Shown: piece after piece, positions 1 through 4,631 of the stretch
How the letters are laid out: each line of letters begins with the position of its first letter
How positions within the stretch are numbered: the first letter of the stretch is position 1
DNA from: a virus
Lineage: Duplodnaviria; Heunggongvirae; Uroviricota; Caudoviricetes
Virus record (IMG/VR): IMGVR_UViG_648276648_000005
Coordinates: 1-4,631 of that record
Length of the DNA: 4,631 nt
Reading direction: 5' to 3' (one strand)
Made by a program: the position numbers and the translations under genes
Notes under the pieces: model-generated
What the model was told of the DNA's origin: nothing
Database searches by the model: none
The model's input: the letters and a program-made list of their open reading frames with translations, nothing else

Positions 1-781
1 AAATGCTCTTAGTACAGTACCGGACGATGTCCGGACTCGGCACCCCATGAAATACCTGAATATATGATGTGTTTGCAGATGCTCCCCCCGCGCCACCGCC
101 TGTACCACCCGGTGCAGTTATCAGGGAACCGAAATAAGTTGTGCCACCTTCACTACCTGAATTTCTTCCGGCTCCCCCCCCTTTACCTGCAGCACCGATA
201 ATAACGTTGACTTCGAAATCATTATCAACCTCGAAAAATGCTTCAATAAATGCACCGCTCAATCCAGCTCCGGCTGTTGCCTGCTGATTTGCTGTTGTTT
301 CAGGAACCCCACCGCCGCCGCCACCGCCACCAGAGGCAATGACCCTTATCTTTTTTGTCCCTGGTGTTGGGATATATTTTCCAGAGCTTTTAAAAATATT
401 CGTGTTTAACAAACGACCAGAGAATCTGGCTTCTCCCAAACCAAGGTTTTCGAGAGCCGTTTTCACCGTGCCATCCGATTTGATATCACCAAACGGATTC
501 TTGCGGCTCAGGTATTCAACAGCAAACCCCGATCCCAGCAATTCAACAAAACCGGGCAGATCACCATTATCAAGCACATCCCGTTGCGTTTTGTCACTTA
601 CAAACTGGGCCAGAGCTGCAGCAATAAAGCTGGCCTGCCGAATAACCTTATTGACTTGCGCACTGGATGCTTTCCCTGCTGTAAATCCGGATAAAAGCGC
701 AGGCAACGCTTCCCATTCCTCCTGCGACATAACATTGGCATTTTTACCCGTTGCGAATGCTTTAAAGTCATTTTTTGCCAT
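1..781 (-). CDS. Tail fibre protein, N-terminal ~260 codons (gene continues beyond the window start); glycine-rich central region
   Basis: Minus-strand ATG at 781..779 overlaps the stop of the upstream gene. I scanned the frame by hand and found no stop down to position 2. The ORF track omits it, presumably because it has no in-window stop. Translation begins [33 protein letters not shown] and later contains a Gly8 run and further GGxGG motifs typical of phage fibre proteins. Its position right after the baseplate genes fits a fibre gene. Confidence 0.75.
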
Positions 782-1461
782 CAGAGTAATACTCCCCATG
801 CCCCTACATCAAAACCACTGATGAATTCGTTATCCATATCAAAACCAAAAAATTTTGAACCTTCCGATGGGGTTTCCACCGAAGGTGTTTCAATGCCACC
901 CGCCCACACCCCGGCGGCTTTTACTGTGAGATATCCCTGTTTAATTGCAGCAATTAACTCACGCGATACATCTGAAATATCAGTATCAGGAAAGACCCAG
1001 ACCGATATCGTCATGTCCTGGTTATCGACAATCTGCATTCGCAGCCCGGATCCTGCTGTTGCCGCGTCAAGAATTGCCGGAAGCGAATCATTCCGTCCGT
1101 CCCAGTTATTAATCGCAATCTTCGCTTTAAGAATGACACGATAAGTTTCATCGCTGAGATACATGTATCCAGAATCAGGATCATATGGCCCCTGCCATAC
1201 CCCCTGATCATATCCAAGCCCGTCGGTATCCCAGCTGAAATAGACACCTGAGATAGGCTGGCTGACAACACGGCTACGTCCGATCCACAATCCCAGAATG
1301 TCAAGTTGCACACCAACCGCAGAGTCAATATCAAATGCAGTAATCAGCCCTCTGGTGGCAGCCGCAACATCAATAAGCGGCCGGGTCATCAGATCAACAT
1401 GCGCAAGAAATTTAGGTTTGGTGGCGTGGTAGTTCGTGATTAGTTCGGTGTATTTGCTCAT
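781..1461 (-). CDS. Baseplate/tail protein, Mu gp48-like (e14 YmfQ-like, DUF2313-type)
   Basis: 226-aa ORF whose start overlaps the stop of the J-like gene (ATGA at 1458..1461) and whose stop overlaps the fibre start at 781. Size and position immediately downstream of baseplate J match the gp48/gpI-type wedge protein. The family assignment is from gene order and recollection, not a search. Confidence 0.7.
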
Positions 1462-2657
1462 GACTCCACCGTTATAACGATATTTTCCGGGGTACAGGAC
1501 GCAGATTCGTTGTATCTGATATCAATGTTTGATGACGACAAAGCCCCCGGGGATTTCCCAATCGTCAGTTCCTGAATATCGTAATAGCGTGCATTCCCGC
1601 CACTCACCACGCCAAGATTGGCCGGTGAGTAAATGCGACTTAAAAGGACTGAATCACCAATCGTCAGACTATTGATATAGTCGGAAATAGCCTGCTGGAT
1701 CTGCTGCCCTATCTGTGAGGTATAACCCGTAAAAACTTTTAATTTAATCCGGGCATAAACAGGTACATCACTGGAACGCGAGAATTTGATTACATGGGGA
1801 TTGCCGTATTTATCCGGAACCGTAACGGATGTTGTACCGTGAGTGGCTGTCCCCTGACCTTTATTCCCTCTGATAGCCTGAGCAATATCCGTCACATCAC
1901 CGCCATCCACAATTACAGCAACAGAGTGTGGTGGTAACCCGTTACCGTCCTCCGAACCAGTATCGTTTTCATAGAGTTTGTGGCGGGTTACACCGGTAAC
2001 ATTAGAAACAGCACCATCCAGTGCTTCAAATGGGGTTATTGATGGCAATGCAACACTTTGCGACTGGCGGATACGTAACTCCGCGTCAGTTTCTGCCGGA
2101 GTGCCCACAGTAGCTGCAGCAGGATTGGTTACCGAAACCCAGCCACGGGTTGGCGTATTAATTTCAGTGATAGTTCCAGCCAGCGCCGCCACTGCACCAC
2201 TGACGGAACATGTTGCGGTCACCATCACTGTACCATCCACGCCGACCACCACTGAAGCAGGCAAACGCCATATCACATTATTACTGTCTTTCACGCTGCC
2301 ATTAATGATGGTTGTTCCGGCAGTTCCTGTAAGAAGCAAATCAACCGTAGAATTCGTCGCGCCTTTACGTGAAATACCATTTATTTTCACGTTACTGGTC
2401 AGTGCGGCCCCATAGCCGGTTGCTGGTGAAAAACAGTTGTAGACAGTTATCGCCATATTATTGGCATCATGAATCGCCAGCGCCATCAGAGCCACCATCT
2501 GACCGTCTTTACTGTCCGGTTCGAGGTAGGCATCACTACCATAAATCTGCTGAAAATAGCTAATCAGGGTGCTGAGTATCGTCTGATAATCAGGCGCACT
2601 GATCCCCTCCGCGGTTACCTTTGCAGATAAACCGAGAGAATCAAGGTTCAGAGCCAT
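1458..2657 (-). CDS. Baseplate J-like protein (Mu gp47 / P2 gpJ family)
   Basis: 399-aa ORF, the largest in the cluster, with a Thr/Gly/Val-rich beta-type composition. It lies between the small gp46-like and gp48-like genes, and its start at 2657..2655 overlaps the upstream stop (TAATG). Confidence 0.8.
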   Translation of the reverse strand: MALNLDSLGLSAKVTAEGISAPDYQTILSTLISYFQQIYGSDAYLEPDSKDGQMVALMALAIHDANNMAITVYNCFSPATGYGAALTSNVKINGISRKGATNSTVDLLLTGTAGTTIINGSVKDSNNVIWRLPASVVVGVDGTVMVTATCSVSGAVAALAGTITEINTPTRGWVSVTNPAAATVGTPAETDAELRIRQSQSVALPSITPFEALDGAVSNVTGVTRHKLYENDTGSEDGNGLPPHSVAVIVDGGDVTDIAQAIRGNKGQGTATHGTTSVTVPDKYGNPHVIKFSRSSDVPVYARIKLKVFTGYTSQIGQQIQQAISDYINSLTIGDSVLLSRIYSPANLGVVSGGNARYYDIQELTIGKSPGALSSSNIDIRYNESASCTPENIVITVES

Positions 2658-3010
2658 TACGCCTCCGATGTAACAGTCGTTATTCCATAGAGAGTGTCGA
2701 TTTCAGCGGAAAACATGACACGTCGGGTCGTGGTATCCACCGTCGTATTGAAAGAGAGGATTGATTTAACGCCCTGCGTTTCGAGGATGCGCTTACGGAT
2801 CGCCAGGTTGTAAGTTTCTGGTTTTTGCCTGCCCAGCACGGACTGGATCCACGGTGTTCCCTCTGTGGTATCAAGAAACCATTGCCCATACCACAATTCG
2901 AATCGCGTTTTCACAGCCTGCGCTACGGCCTCAGGCGAGTTAATCAGCCAGGTGTCATCACCGCTGCCAAAGGTGTAATCGCCATCGGCGTCTTCACGTC
3001 TGTATCGCAT
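2657..3010 (-). CDS. Small baseplate protein, Mu gp46-like (W-type wedge subunit)
   Basis: 117-aa ORF sitting between the spike and J-like genes, with overlapping stop/start codons at both ends. The call is by size and synteny. Confidence 0.65.
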   Translation of the reverse strand: MRYRREDADGDYTFGSGDDTWLINSPEAVAQAVKTRFELWYGQWFLDTTEGTPWIQSVLGRQKPETYNLAIRKRILETQGVKSILSFNTTVDTTTRRVMFSAEIDTLYGITTVTSEA

Positions 3011-3762
3011 CAGTTTACCCCGTCGGTACTGCTTCCACCACGCTGAACACCACCATGAGTGTGTGTATCATCGATTGGCTTGCCATTAGCCTTCACGCTC
3101 CCCAAAAACTCAACAGCACCAGTGATTTTTGAAGCCACACCAGAAACCACAGACCCCACCATGCCCCCCATCCAGGTTAACAGGCCATGAATGGTTACTT
3201 TCTCAGAAAAATCAGCCAGAGGGGCAACCACATCAAGACCACCTGGAGCGACAATTTTAATTTTCCTGGTATCAGGATTAAGCTCAAAATAGGTGCTGCC
3301 GTCATCACTACGCAACTGTGTGGCACTGGTATTAATACCGCTAATCTTCCTTGCCTGCGACTGGGGACCGACAATACAAAACGCATCCGATAAATCATGC
3401 ATTCTGTCATCGACCGACTCCTGTATCCCGCCACTCTGCCACCAGAAATCAATACAACGATCGGCAAAAATCACCAAACATTCATCACCGGCTTTAACTG
3501 GGAACGTTAGCGTACATCCTCCGCCGCGCGGGAATACCACTGGCACATCCACCAGCAATGGGTAATTTTTGGTAATGCGGTTGCCGTCATTATCCTTTTC
3601 AACCGAACGGATAGCAGGCTGCACAACTGCCGTCACCGCATCAGGATCGAATGACTGAATAATGCCAGGCAAGGCGACACGGATCTGGTTCTTTGTTGTT
3701 TCCCGTTCAGATTTGAATGTTTCGGCAAGGTCGCCGCTGCGGGTCTGGTCAGATACTGCCAT
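3010..3762 (-). CDS. Baseplate central spike/assembly protein (Mu gp45 / P2 gpV-like) with a His-rich C-terminal tip
   Basis: 250-aa ORF with a GGAG ribosome-binding site 8 nt upstream of the ATG at 3762..3760. The N-terminal half has an OB-fold-like pattern (LVDVPVVFPRGGG...DECLVIFADRCIDFWW). The C-terminus carries DDTHTHGGVQRGG, resembling the metal-binding apex of spike proteins. Confidence 0.7.
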   Translation of the reverse strand: MAVSDQTRSGDLAETFKSERETTKNQIRVALPGIIQSFDPDAVTAVVQPAIRSVEKDNDGNRITKNYPLLVDVPVVFPRGGGCTLTFPVKAGDECLVIFADRCIDFWWQSGGIQESVDDRMHDLSDAFCIVGPQSQARKISGINTSATQLRSDDGSTYFELNPDTRKIKIVAPGGLDVVAPLADFSEKVTIHGLLTWMGGMVGSVVSGVASKITGAVEFLGSVKANGKPIDDTHTHGGVQRGGSSTDGVN

Positions 3763-3781: not shown

Positions 3782-3804
3782 AAAAAACCCGCCGAAGCGG
3801 GTTT
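3782..3804 (-). terminator. Rho-independent terminator downstream of the 131-aa ORF
   Basis: On the minus strand the sequence is AAACCCGC-TTCG-GCGGGTTT followed by TTT: a perfect 8-bp stem with a UUCG tetraloop and a U-tract, 18 nt after the ORF stop at 3822. On the plus strand the stem is followed by only three T, so it is effectively unidirectional. Confidence 0.75.
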
Positions 3805-3821
3805 GATAACGTTAATTTTAT

Positions 3822-4217
3822 TCATGAAACTCTAGCAGACTTTAGCTGTTCCCAGCGCTCAAAATAGAGTTCAGCAGCCTCGATTGCATCCTGTCCCATC
3901 TCTTTCGAAACAGTCACATTCGTCAGATCATAGTCAGCTTCATTTCTAGCATCCCGCCACTGGCGAAGTACGAAAGCTAGGGATTTCAGTGTATTTGTCG
4001 GGTATGGCTCTGATTTGCACTCTGAGGGCGTTGACATATAACCCACAGTATTTTTGTGATGCTCATGGGTAAAATGCGGTATGGCAGTAAGTGAGCTAAT
4101 AGACTCATGTAACATACTGTAATACGCCCTTGAGATAGCGCTTCGAAATCCACTCTCAATATTTTCAGACAGACATAATCGAGCGGTATCGAGAATCTGA
4201 TTGCTAGTTACCGACAT
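3822..4217 (-). CDS. Hypothetical protein, possibly HEPN-like (candidate orphan toxin/defence cargo gene)
   Basis: 131-aa ORF with a GGTGA ribosome-binding site 6 nt upstream of the ATG at 4217..4215 and its own terminator. Hand-counted GC is about 44% against about 52% for the neighbouring baseplate genes. The protein looks all-helical, with an N-terminal pattern (ARLCLSENIESGF-RSAISRAYYSMLHESISSL) and a C-terminal RDARNEADYD resembling HEPN motifs. The functional call is inference only. Confidence 0.6.
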   Translation of the reverse strand: MSVTSNQILDTARLCLSENIESGFRSAISRAYYSMLHESISSLTAIPHFTHEHHKNTVGYMSTPSECKSEPYPTNTLKSLAFVLRQWRDARNEADYDLTNVTVSKEMGQDAIEAAELYFERWEQLKSARVS

Positions 4218-4231
4218 GGTAGCTCACCCCC

Positions 4232-4260
4232 TGACCTGCTCCCCGTTGATTAGTACACCC
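4232..4260 (+). repeat. Putative left terminal inverted repeat (IRL) of the IS element; inner boundary approximate
   Basis: Begins with TGACCTGC. The right end is outside the window, so the IR length and the target-site duplication cannot be confirmed. Confidence 0.45.
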
Positions 4261-4273
4261 CGATGTTAGTAAT
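4246..4273 (+). promoter_or_regulatory. Candidate orfA promoter (-35 TTGATT, 16-nt spacer, -10 AGTAAT) inside the IS left end
   Basis: TTGATT at 4246..4251 and AGTAAT at 4268..4273, upstream of a GAGGA ribosome-binding site at 4291..4295 and the orfA ATG at 4303. This is hexamer matching by eye only. Confidence 0.3.
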
Positions 4274-4302
4274 GTCTTCATAAGCCACATGAGGACATCC
4301 CC

Positions 4303-4566
4303 ATGAAGAAGCGTTTTTCCGACGAACAGATCATCAGTATTCTCCGCGAAGCCGAAGCTGGGGTACCCGCCCGTGAACTCTGCCGCAAGCATGCCATTTC
4401 CGATGCCACGTTTTACACCTGGCGTAAGAAGTATGGCGGTATGGAGGTGCCTGAAGTTAAGCGCCTGAAGTCGCTTGAGGAAGAGAACGCCAGACTCAAG
4501 AAGCTGCTTGCCGAAGCCATGCTGGATAAAGAGGCGCTTCAGGTGGCTCTTGGGCGAAAGTACTGA
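4303..4566 (+). CDS. IS3-family transposase OrfA (HTH DNA-binding domain plus leucine-zipper region)
   Basis: 87-aa ORF MKKRFSDEQIISILREAEAGVPARELCRKHAISDATFYTWRKKYGG...LEEENARLKKLLAEAMLDKEALQVAL. The helix-turn-helix and heptad-leucine pattern is characteristic of IS3/IS407 OrfA. GAGGA ribosome-binding site 7 nt upstream. Confidence 0.9.
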   Translation: MKKRFSDEQIISILREAEAGVPARELCRKHAISDATFYTWRKKYGGMEVPEVKRLKSLEEENARLKKLLAEAMLDKEALQVALGRKY

Positions 4567-4631
4567 CGACAGACCAGAAGCGGGAAGCCGTGATGTTGAT
4601 GTGTGATGCGACCGGTCTGTCGCAACGTCGT
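4530..4631 (+). CDS. IS3-family transposase OrfB, N-terminal part (-1 frame relative to orfA; expressed as OrfAB by frameshifting; partial)
   Basis: The -1 frame is open from 4530 to the window end and reads ...KVLTTDQKREAVMLMCDATGLSQRR, a typical OrfB N-terminus. It has no start codon of its own, which implies fusion to OrfA by frameshift. Confidence 0.7.
4557..4622 (+). promoter_or_regulatory. Programmed -1 ribosomal frameshift signal: A_AAG slippery motif plus downstream stem-loop
   Basis: A_AAG at 4557..4560 is the last Lys codon of orfA, followed by a 6-nt spacer containing the orfA stop. Then 4567..4575 CGACAGACC pairs perfectly with 4614..4622 GGTCTGTCG (9 bp) across a 38-nt loop. Confidence 0.55.

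Follow-up and report, generated by a model that had tools for sequence, protein, structure and literature searches.

A run of eight guanines inside the gene for a phage receptor-binding protein raises the question of whether the loss or gain of a single base can turn that gene off and on again, or whether the run is simply the way in which a few glycines happen to be spelled. We considered this for a 4,631-nucleotide stretch of viral DNA (IMG/VR record IMGVR_UViG_648276648_000005; hereafter, the window), at the left end of which lies the 5′ part of a tail-fibre gene that contains both a G8 homopolymer and a tract of eight glycine codons. An earlier note on the same DNA had proposed the homopolymer as a slippage-based on/off switch and had offered flexible linkers as the alternative reading of the glycine runs. 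The answer depends on where the tracts lie in the gene, on how the gene varies among its relatives and on what the glycines do in the protein.

The tail-fibre gene and its glycine tracts

The window carries, on its minus strand, the baseplate module of a contractile tail. A spike gene (3762..3010; PF18352 and an Apex motif) is followed by a gene for 117 amino acids (3010..2657), the counterpart of which is named sheath initiator at related loci, by a Baseplate_J gene (2657..1458), by a DUF2612 wedge gene (1461..781) and by the 5′ 780 nt (260 codons) of the fibre gene (1..781), the ATG of which (781..779) overlaps the wedge-gene TGA. We assign this last gene to a tail fibre because it lies downstream of the spike, sheath-initiator, Baseplate_J and wedge genes, and because its product matches both Pfam Gly_rich_2 and the fold of the Pam3 fibre. 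The left end of the window falls inside the gene, where the open reading frame (ORF) is still open. In a protein search, residues 1–240 are 100% identical to an intact fibre allele of 343 amino acids (P0002; record name ‘phage tail protein’), which an exact-protein look-up records on 67 contigs and the gene for which has 70 glycines among its 343 codons. An ORF of 87 amino acids lies downstream of the fibre gene in relatives, and the resulting order of wedge, fibre and 87-residue ORF is consistent with a putative trimeric, baseplate-docked fibre and a downstream chaperone. In JNEC-KY208 (locus L001), the closest complete genome, the host element is a myovirus prophage of about 43 kb that has its own DNA polymerase and looks largely complete. 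The other end of the window, from about 4226 onward, is occupied by an ISSen4-like IS3 element; no complete Escherichia coli genome contains the junction of the window with this element.

The G8 homopolymer (174..181, minus strand; C8 on the plus strand) and a G6 homopolymer (84..89, minus strand; C6 on the plus strand) lie exactly where the earlier note had placed them. The former sits in the coding context AAA GGG GGG GGA GCC GGA, which reads KGGGAG (residues 200–205), the run itself belonging to AAA GGG GGG GGA (K200-G-G-G203). The latter is part of GCG GGG GGA (A-G-G, residues 231–233) and is a weaker indel site. Eight consecutive glycine codons are likewise present, as had been claimed, but their range had been given 3 nt off, as 311..334, which takes in a serine codon (332..334) and misses a GGG codon (308..310). 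Because the reading frame is set by the ATG at 781..779, the (GGN)8 tract occupies 308..331 on the minus strand (GGT GGC GGT GGC GGC GGC GGT GGG, encoding Gly151–158). Tandem Repeats Finder (TRF) reports a period-6 CCACCG array over 309..331, an imperfect hexanucleotide repeat.

A Pin-type invertible segment

The fibre gene consists of a constant part and a cassette. The constant N-terminal part (residues 1 to about 113; 444..781, minus strand) is predicted to be α-helical and, by analogy with gp24 of phage Pam3 (PMC9608196), is taken to be a baseplate-docking shaft. The glycine-rich cassette (1..~443, minus strand) lies inside an invertible segment of the e14/Pin type. At the boundary between the two is a 26-bp crossover site of the Pin/Din type, TTCTCCCAAACCAAGGTTTTCGAGAG (431..456, with no strand assigned), the core of which, TTGGTTTGGGAGAAGC, matches 15 of 16 positions of the inverted repeat published for the e14 P segment, TTGGTTTGGGAGAAGG (PMC12529663). 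The homology breakpoints of relatives fall at this site, at about 430–455 of the window. When the gene was compared by BLAST with 5,426 complete E. coli genomes, its 5′ part (window 424..800) was found in many of them; the glycine-rich part (window 1..430) was found in only 35, where it is joined to other N termini or lies unfused beside a recombinase gene.

These relatives supply the remainder of the segment. In L001, inverted arms at 6352–6372 and 8059–8079 are 1686 nt apart; next come an alternative cassette that is opposed and has a Caudo_TAP assembly gene, and then pinE. The window itself holds one arm and one cassette; the recombinase gene (pinE or a Resolvase + HTH_7 gene), the Caudo_TAP gene and the alternative cassette are seen in relatives only. 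Both orientations occur: the cassette is joined to the constant part in the window, in L001 and in L038–42, and it is unfused, beside the recombinase gene, in L002, L003, L023 and L027. At least eight different fibre N termini are fused to this one cassette. Conversely, the constant part is common to prophages and phages that have other C-terminal cassettes: phages with genome records of their own have the constant fibre part and different cassettes, and a DNA-level search of 50,697 phage records found the constant part only, with no record containing the glycine-rich cassette.

The arrangement shares with the e14 P segment and the systems of other Din invertases (Pin, Gin, Cin and Hin) a crossover site within the fibre gene and, in relatives, a segment of about 1.7 kb with inverted arms, opposed cassettes with their own assembly-protein genes and an adjacent serine recombinase gene. 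It differs in that the evidence here for a recombinase and for a second arm comes from relatives only, and in that the glycine-rich cassette is not the StfP/StfE pair of e14 in K-12, although some records label it stfP. As the cassette lies in such a segment, site-specific inversion is the built-in route to a change of fibre tip, and Pin-type DNA inversion, which the earlier note had missed, is the demonstrable switch of this gene.

Length variation at the G8 run

The G8 tract keeps the gene in frame for 343 amino acids. With G7 the product ends at 219 residues, which bears out the earlier claim that a one-base indel truncates the fibre, and with G9 it ends at 209. Because the alternative frames past the tract stop after 6–19 codons, there is no second ORF to reach, and programmed frameshifting or transcriptional slippage towards a second product was rejected.

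A variable-gap pattern scan of viral, metagenome and species-representative genome collections returned 17 viral or metagenome contigs, all with a tract of 8 nt, and no match among the species-representative genomes. In a set of 23 copies (the 17 contigs, the first five E. coli loci fetched and the window), 17 had G8, 4 had the synonymous interrupted allele GGTGGGGG, which leaves the protein unchanged, and 2 had G7. Invariance of the tract, for which the pattern scan alone had argued, was overturned once exact sequences were looked up in a protein collection of 15 billion entries. The look-ups found the 219-residue G7 product on 16 contigs, among them short-read assemblies (megahit and Logan) and NCBI drafts, and a 220-residue G10 product on two SPAdes contigs with 8–14× coverage; the G9 and G6 products were absent from that collection. 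Ten control indels were looked up in the same way in the window-type context (gain or loss of one base at each of the A6, G6 and G7 runs, loss of one base at each of two T5 runs, and the Gly7 and Gly9 variants), and their products, including both of those from the G6 run, were absent except for that of A6−1, which was found on one contig. The G7 products were also absent from nine other N-terminal contexts, only the unfused-orientation context being found.

Among the loci fetched from the 35 complete genomes, L001, L005, L026 and L029 have G7 and L030 has an in-frame G5. In L001 and L026 the change from G8 to G7 is the sole departure from the intact allele. Other sites vary too, with one base lost at the G6 run (giving G5) in L005, L024 and L030, one base lost at a G7 run past the window's edge in L005 and L029, A6−1 in L023, and one glycine codon lost in frame from (GGN)8 (Gly7) in L025 and L027; an in-frame Gly10 variant of that tract is found in P0160. 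Several homopolymer deletions coincide in each of L005 (4), L029 (4) and L030 (several), and in these three loci they may be long-read artefacts. Altogether, 9 of the 35 complete-genome copies (about a quarter) are broken somehow, at various homopolymers, and null alleles at the G8 tract make up roughly 10–20% of sampled copies.

Across 14 window-type prophage copies aligned over 4.3 kb there are about six single-nucleotide polymorphism (SNP) columns, and the tract is G7, G8 or G10. At least three cassette haplotypes (ANQQ/FFEV, ENQQ/FFEV and ENQQ/LFEV) encode G7-type products, and one copy is Gly10 as well. The comparison of tract length among relatives that had been suggested thus turns up G7 (at least three haplotypes), G10 and G5, the last of these in frame. 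Close relatives are polymorphic for length (G5, G7, G8 and G10), and frameshifted alleles exist where an invariant tract would have spoken against the switch. G8 is the in-frame majority state. Because G7, G8 and G10 occur among near-identical copies, and G7 on three haplotypes, the tract is a real, recurrent indel hotspot in E. coli prophages. Contig counts for tract alleles are not counts of events: in the 14-copy alignment, the window-type G7 copies are explicable by one mutation followed by one SNP, and the SNP pattern gives no sign of reversion at the tract.

The window's own copy departs from all of these. Against 35 relatives, each locus being represented by a single copy, it has three private indels at 31..56 on the minus strand: it is one C short at 55..56 (CC, against CCC in the others) and has one additional base at each of two places, 38 and 31..32. 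They fall within 26 nt and amount to a net +1, so that the frame is lost after residue 240 (SYIQ), from where a stretch of 18 residues reads otherwise than in the intact allele. Outside these three indels, and the tract at which L001 has G7, the window is identical to L001. Should the sequence downstream resemble that of relatives, the window ORF would stop five codons past the window's edge. The private indel sequence was not found in the genome or viral collections. The window may be a draft contig, short and bounded by a repeat (the IS element) on one side and by the invertible segment on the other, and the clustered indels may have arisen as errors at a contig end; alternatively, the window is a decaying prophage copy. 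Either way, its G8 is the ON length in a gene that is already out of frame downstream.

We think it probable that G8 came about incidentally, through the coding of glycines as GGG-GGG-GGA, and that it behaves as a hotspot for slippage. One probable glycine-rich motif (GRM) of the fibre is spelled GGG-GGG-GGA after AAA, creating a G8 run that, as any long G run, is prone to slipped-strand mispairing during replication. Bases have repeatedly been lost or gained there in natural E. coli prophages, most plausibly by slippage, giving rise to truncated alleles (G7 and G10), and these null alleles persist, probably through weak selection on a prophage cassette that is used in one orientation only. 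Such relaxed selection is our suggested reason for their persistence, and the 9 broken copies among 35 fit the decay of a prophage cassette in part-time use.

Some observations do not favour this reading. No other site in this otherwise nearly clonal prophage comes close to G8 in variability, which counts against a by-product. A genuine contingency locus would give the same picture of dominant variability and null alleles at a comparable share. The G7 and G5 calls of L005, L029 and L030, if they are artefacts, would inflate the hotspot.

The alternative that G8 is such a genuine contingency locus, a selected and reversible slipped-strand ON/OFF switch that forms a second tier over Pin inversion, draws on the same data. 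G5, G7, G8 and G10 occur in near-identical prophages and on at least three haplotypes, the tract dominates the exact-product look-ups (16 + 2 contigs versus 1 for the ten controls) and the in-frame state is also the majority state (67 contigs). A precedent exists in the hypermutable polyG tracts of Campylobacter phage receptor-binding genes, (Sorensen et al. 2021, Cell Rep 35:109214, cited in PMC10877375); with these and with bacterial contingency loci the present case shares an in-frame G homopolymer, here in a phage receptor-binding gene, and frame-switching variants in relatives. We nevertheless consider a contingency locus unlikely, for the tract itself is not enriched over chance. A G8 or C8 run arose in 42 of 200 (21%) dinucleotide-preserving shuffles of the window, and a G run of at least eight in 18–24% of synonymous glycine-codon shuffles (permuted or resampled) of the intact gene. 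The run is therefore within chance expectation, at about 20% of shuffles, and we dropped it as a statistical oddity; the enrichment of uninterrupted tract beyond coding need that marks a contingency locus is not seen. The run is also dispensable, given that 4 of 23 copies have GGTGGGGG with no change to the protein, and five sister glycine-rich cassettes at the same locus contain no G run longer than six. Further against a switch, the exact-protein look-up found no G9, no reversion was seen, G7 may, on the SNP data, have arisen just once within the window-type lineage, and other homopolymers of the cassette are broken too in some genomes.

The mutability expected of the host points in the same direction. 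Campylobacter lacks MutS/L, E. coli is proficient in mismatch repair, and G8 is orders of magnitude less mutable in E. coli than in Campylobacter; classical phase-variable tracts, moreover, are usually at least 9 nt long. Compared with the Campylobacter phage tracts, then, the present one is short (8), tolerant of synonymous change, unenriched over chance and carried in a mismatch-repair-proficient host, and its variants look like fixed null alleles. What stands of the proposed slippage-based switch is a recurrent length hotspot; a reversible or selected switch finds no support. That G8 should provide a second, mutational tier of host-range control, reversibly silencing one invertible cassette independently of Pin, strikes us as quite unlikely; on that reading, replication by the DNA polymerase that the prophage itself encodes might make slippage more frequent.

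A further possibility is that the length variation is a homopolymer artefact of sequencing or assembly and that the true length is always G8. Several of the G7 copies in complete, mostly long-read genomes are also one base short at other G runs, the tract was 8 nt in 17 of 17 viral and metagenome contigs from the pattern scan, and the window itself has three clustered indels near its end. This explanation is very unlikely all the same, as the identical G7 product comes from 16 contigs of independent sources and pipelines (megahit k141, Logan of an SRA run and NCBI drafts), G10 from two SPAdes contigs at 8–14×, and G7-type products from three haplotypes, and as L001 and L026 show nothing but the G8-to-G7 change relative to the intact allele.

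Glycine runs in the fibre tip

The favoured reading, in which the run is a by-product of coding, leaves the glycines themselves to be accounted for. The fibre matches Pfam Gly_rich_2 (PF21722) with 31.7 bits (cut-off 24.3) over residues 137–237, and the same family is found in intact homologues. An AlphaFold2 model built on 32 homologues predicts a helical region of low confidence at residues 1–120 (predicted local distance difference test (pLDDT) scores of 50–60) and a compact C-terminal domain at residues 121–230 (pLDDT 85–97), which includes both glycine runs; pLDDT is about 92 for the Gly151–158 block (residues 151–160) and 91–97 over residues 191–210, the blocks that contain K200–G205 scoring 97 and 91. 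With this model, Foldseek returned the Pam3 fibre as the best match in the PDB (7ypx_A, E = 3.4e-9; 7yfw_a), followed by glycine-rich tail-tip proteins of mycobacteriophage Bxb1 (9d93) and then by the glycine-rich domains of ALK/LTK. A profile of the family finds Pam3 gp24 from sequence alone (E = 5e-5) and aligns the window's block of eight glycines with VGGGGAGGN, IGAAGK with TVGAAG and, at the C terminus, GxxGIVIVEEY with GKQGIIIVQY. The block of eight glycines is the first glycine-rich motif (family motif GGGGxGG) and follows a β-strand. Instances of GGGGxGG are SGGGGGGGG at residues 150–158 in the window and GAGGGGAC at residues 312–319 in intact P0002. Across the 32 homologues, which represent different cassettes, G153, G196, G199, G212/213 and G225 are invariant, with others, and G151–G154 are invariant or nearly so in the family alignment.

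In Pam3 gp24, a helical domain for docking at the N terminus is followed by a TNF-like sandwich and by a glycine-rich domain, the GRMs of which are extended and stacked into a hydrogen-bonded lattice in the solved structure, with GGGGxGG in the central loops; the variable distal tips have been proposed to bind receptor, and gp24 resembles gp38 of phage S16 (PMC9608196). On the evidence of model and alignment, the present fibre would share with gp24 (PDB 7YPX/7YFW) the N-terminal α-helical shaft, the TNF-like β-sandwich and the glycine-rich lattice. Common to both are GGGGxGG in the first and last loops, a C-terminal strand of the form G..G.GI.I.EY, and a fibre gene that adjoins a wedge gene of the DUF2612 type and is followed (here in relatives) by a small chaperone-like gene. 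The two differ in that identity is only about 22%, in that the host here is E. coli and for Pam3 a cyanobacterium, and in that the distal domain here is swappable behind a Pin crossover, none being described for Pam3. More distantly, the predicted lattice would be comparable to those of gp38 of T-even phages and S16 and of ALK/LTK, in which consecutive glycines form rigid lattices for ligand or receptor recognition. The similarity is weak, with a TM of about 0.2 to ALK; gp38 is an adhesin separate from the fibre itself, and the domain context differs in both.

The confident model, the conservation within the family and the homology to Pam3 gp24 together indicate that the glycine runs are probably structural motifs of a predicted receptor-binding domain and not linkers. 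That they are flexible linkers between fibre domains, as the earlier note had allowed, is highly improbable: poly-glycine is the classic linker composition and DSSP assigns the residues of the runs no regular secondary structure in the model, but they have pLDDT of about 92 and 91–97, align with conserved lattice-forming GRMs of Pam3 gp24 (PMC9608196), contain glycines that are invariant at these positions across cassettes and belong to a confidently modelled compact domain, the low-confidence segment being the N-terminal helical part. From the matches in fold and sequence we infer a polyglycine lattice in this fibre, and its glycine-rich tip may well be what binds the receptor. G8 and (GGN)8 would then be the DNA footprint of GRMs, extended all-glycine strands packed in a hydrogen-bonded lattice, and the GRMs would build up the domain that binds the receptor at the distal end of a simple myovirus fibre, one of the Pam3 gp24/Gly_rich_2 type.

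A glycine-lattice receptor-binding cassette and a Pin-invertible segment are both of known kinds. Were the run a true switch, a second, stochastic layer of host-range control would lie over DNA inversion in enterobacterial phages, and polyG phase variation of receptor-binding proteins of the Campylobacter type would extend to a mismatch-repair-proficient enterobacterial host. If, as we favour, G8 is a by-product of coding, glycine-rich fibre tips are to be seen as structural lattices and not as linkers, and their GGG-rich coding would create frameshift hotspots that explain many of the ‘truncated’ or ‘partial’ annotations of E. coli phage tail genes and also some ‘carbohydrate kinase’ mislabels. 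It would then be advisable to inspect such sites before declaring a prophage defective or engineering a fibre; recoding of GGG-GGG-GGA to GGT-GGG-GGA, which occurs naturally, would stabilize the gene.

The invertible glycine-rich cassette

The fibre gene contains an internal crossover site of the e14/Pin type (window 431..456), with counterpart arms at 6352-6372 and 8059-8079 of L001, the locus fetched from Escherichia coli JNEC-KY208. Because this site sits within the gene, all of the window's Gly-rich sequence (positions 1..~443) belongs to an invertible cassette. At least eight different fibre N-termini are joined to this cassette in E. coli, P2-like, e14-like and SfV-like types among them. 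Many E. coli and Shigella tail-fibre proteins carrying the Gly_rich_2 domain bear the NCBI name 'carbohydrate kinase' (in our protein search, P0021, P0039, P0041, P0047-P0052, P0066 and P0076), probably a mislabel set off by the GGGGxGG motif.

Length change in and around the glycine tracts

The (GGN)8 tract (window 308..331) is an imperfect GGTGGC repeat that differs in length, in frame, between relatives (E. coli loci L025 and L027 and protein P0160): Gly7 variants have lost GGC or TGG, and a single copy has Gly10. The first glycine-rich motif therefore tolerates, or at least accumulates, length change. The cassette holds G runs of eight, seven and six bases, compared with six or fewer in five sister cassettes. 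The G7 run (ACC GGG GGG GAT) lies past the left edge of the window, still within the cassette, at nucleotides 844-850 of the intact gene (3844-3850 of E. coli locus L038), and is G6 in two other loci, L005 and L029. In PCP06235 (L028), a 4-nt deletion of AGCC directly 3' of an intact G8 run, in a copy that also has other small indels, shows that decay affects the border of the G8 tract as well as its interior.

The window's own fibre copy carries three private indels within 26 nt (window 31..56), after which the fibre frame is lost beyond residue 240. These indels were absent from 35 compared relatives (one copy per locus), and the variant was not found in the public genome and viral collections searched; they represent either contig-end errors or a pseudogene.

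The far end of the window and the host prophage

At the opposite end (window ~4226..4631), the sequence runs into an ISSen4-like element of the IS3 family, of which the left end is present, including orfA (4303..4566; HTH_Tnp_1). The insertion point corresponds in JNEC-KY208 to a 257-aa gene that lies upstream of the spike gene and is uninterrupted, and the IS junction was found in none of the complete E. coli genomes searched. Between the element and the spike gene, a minus-strand 131-aa ORF (window 3822..4217) gave no match in a Pfam search and is identical, although unannotated, in JNEC-KY208; it is followed, just upstream of the spike start, by an intrinsic-terminator-like hairpin, AAACCCGCTTCGGCGGGTTT, and a T run (window 3785..3804).

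The host element in JNEC-KY208 is a myovirus prophage of about 43 kb (L043, genome positions 1340000-1383000), which contains an IS2 insertion and encodes its own DNA polymerase, a VapE-type primase and a Q antiterminator. During lytic replication, the rate of slippage could depend in part on this phage-encoded polymerase.
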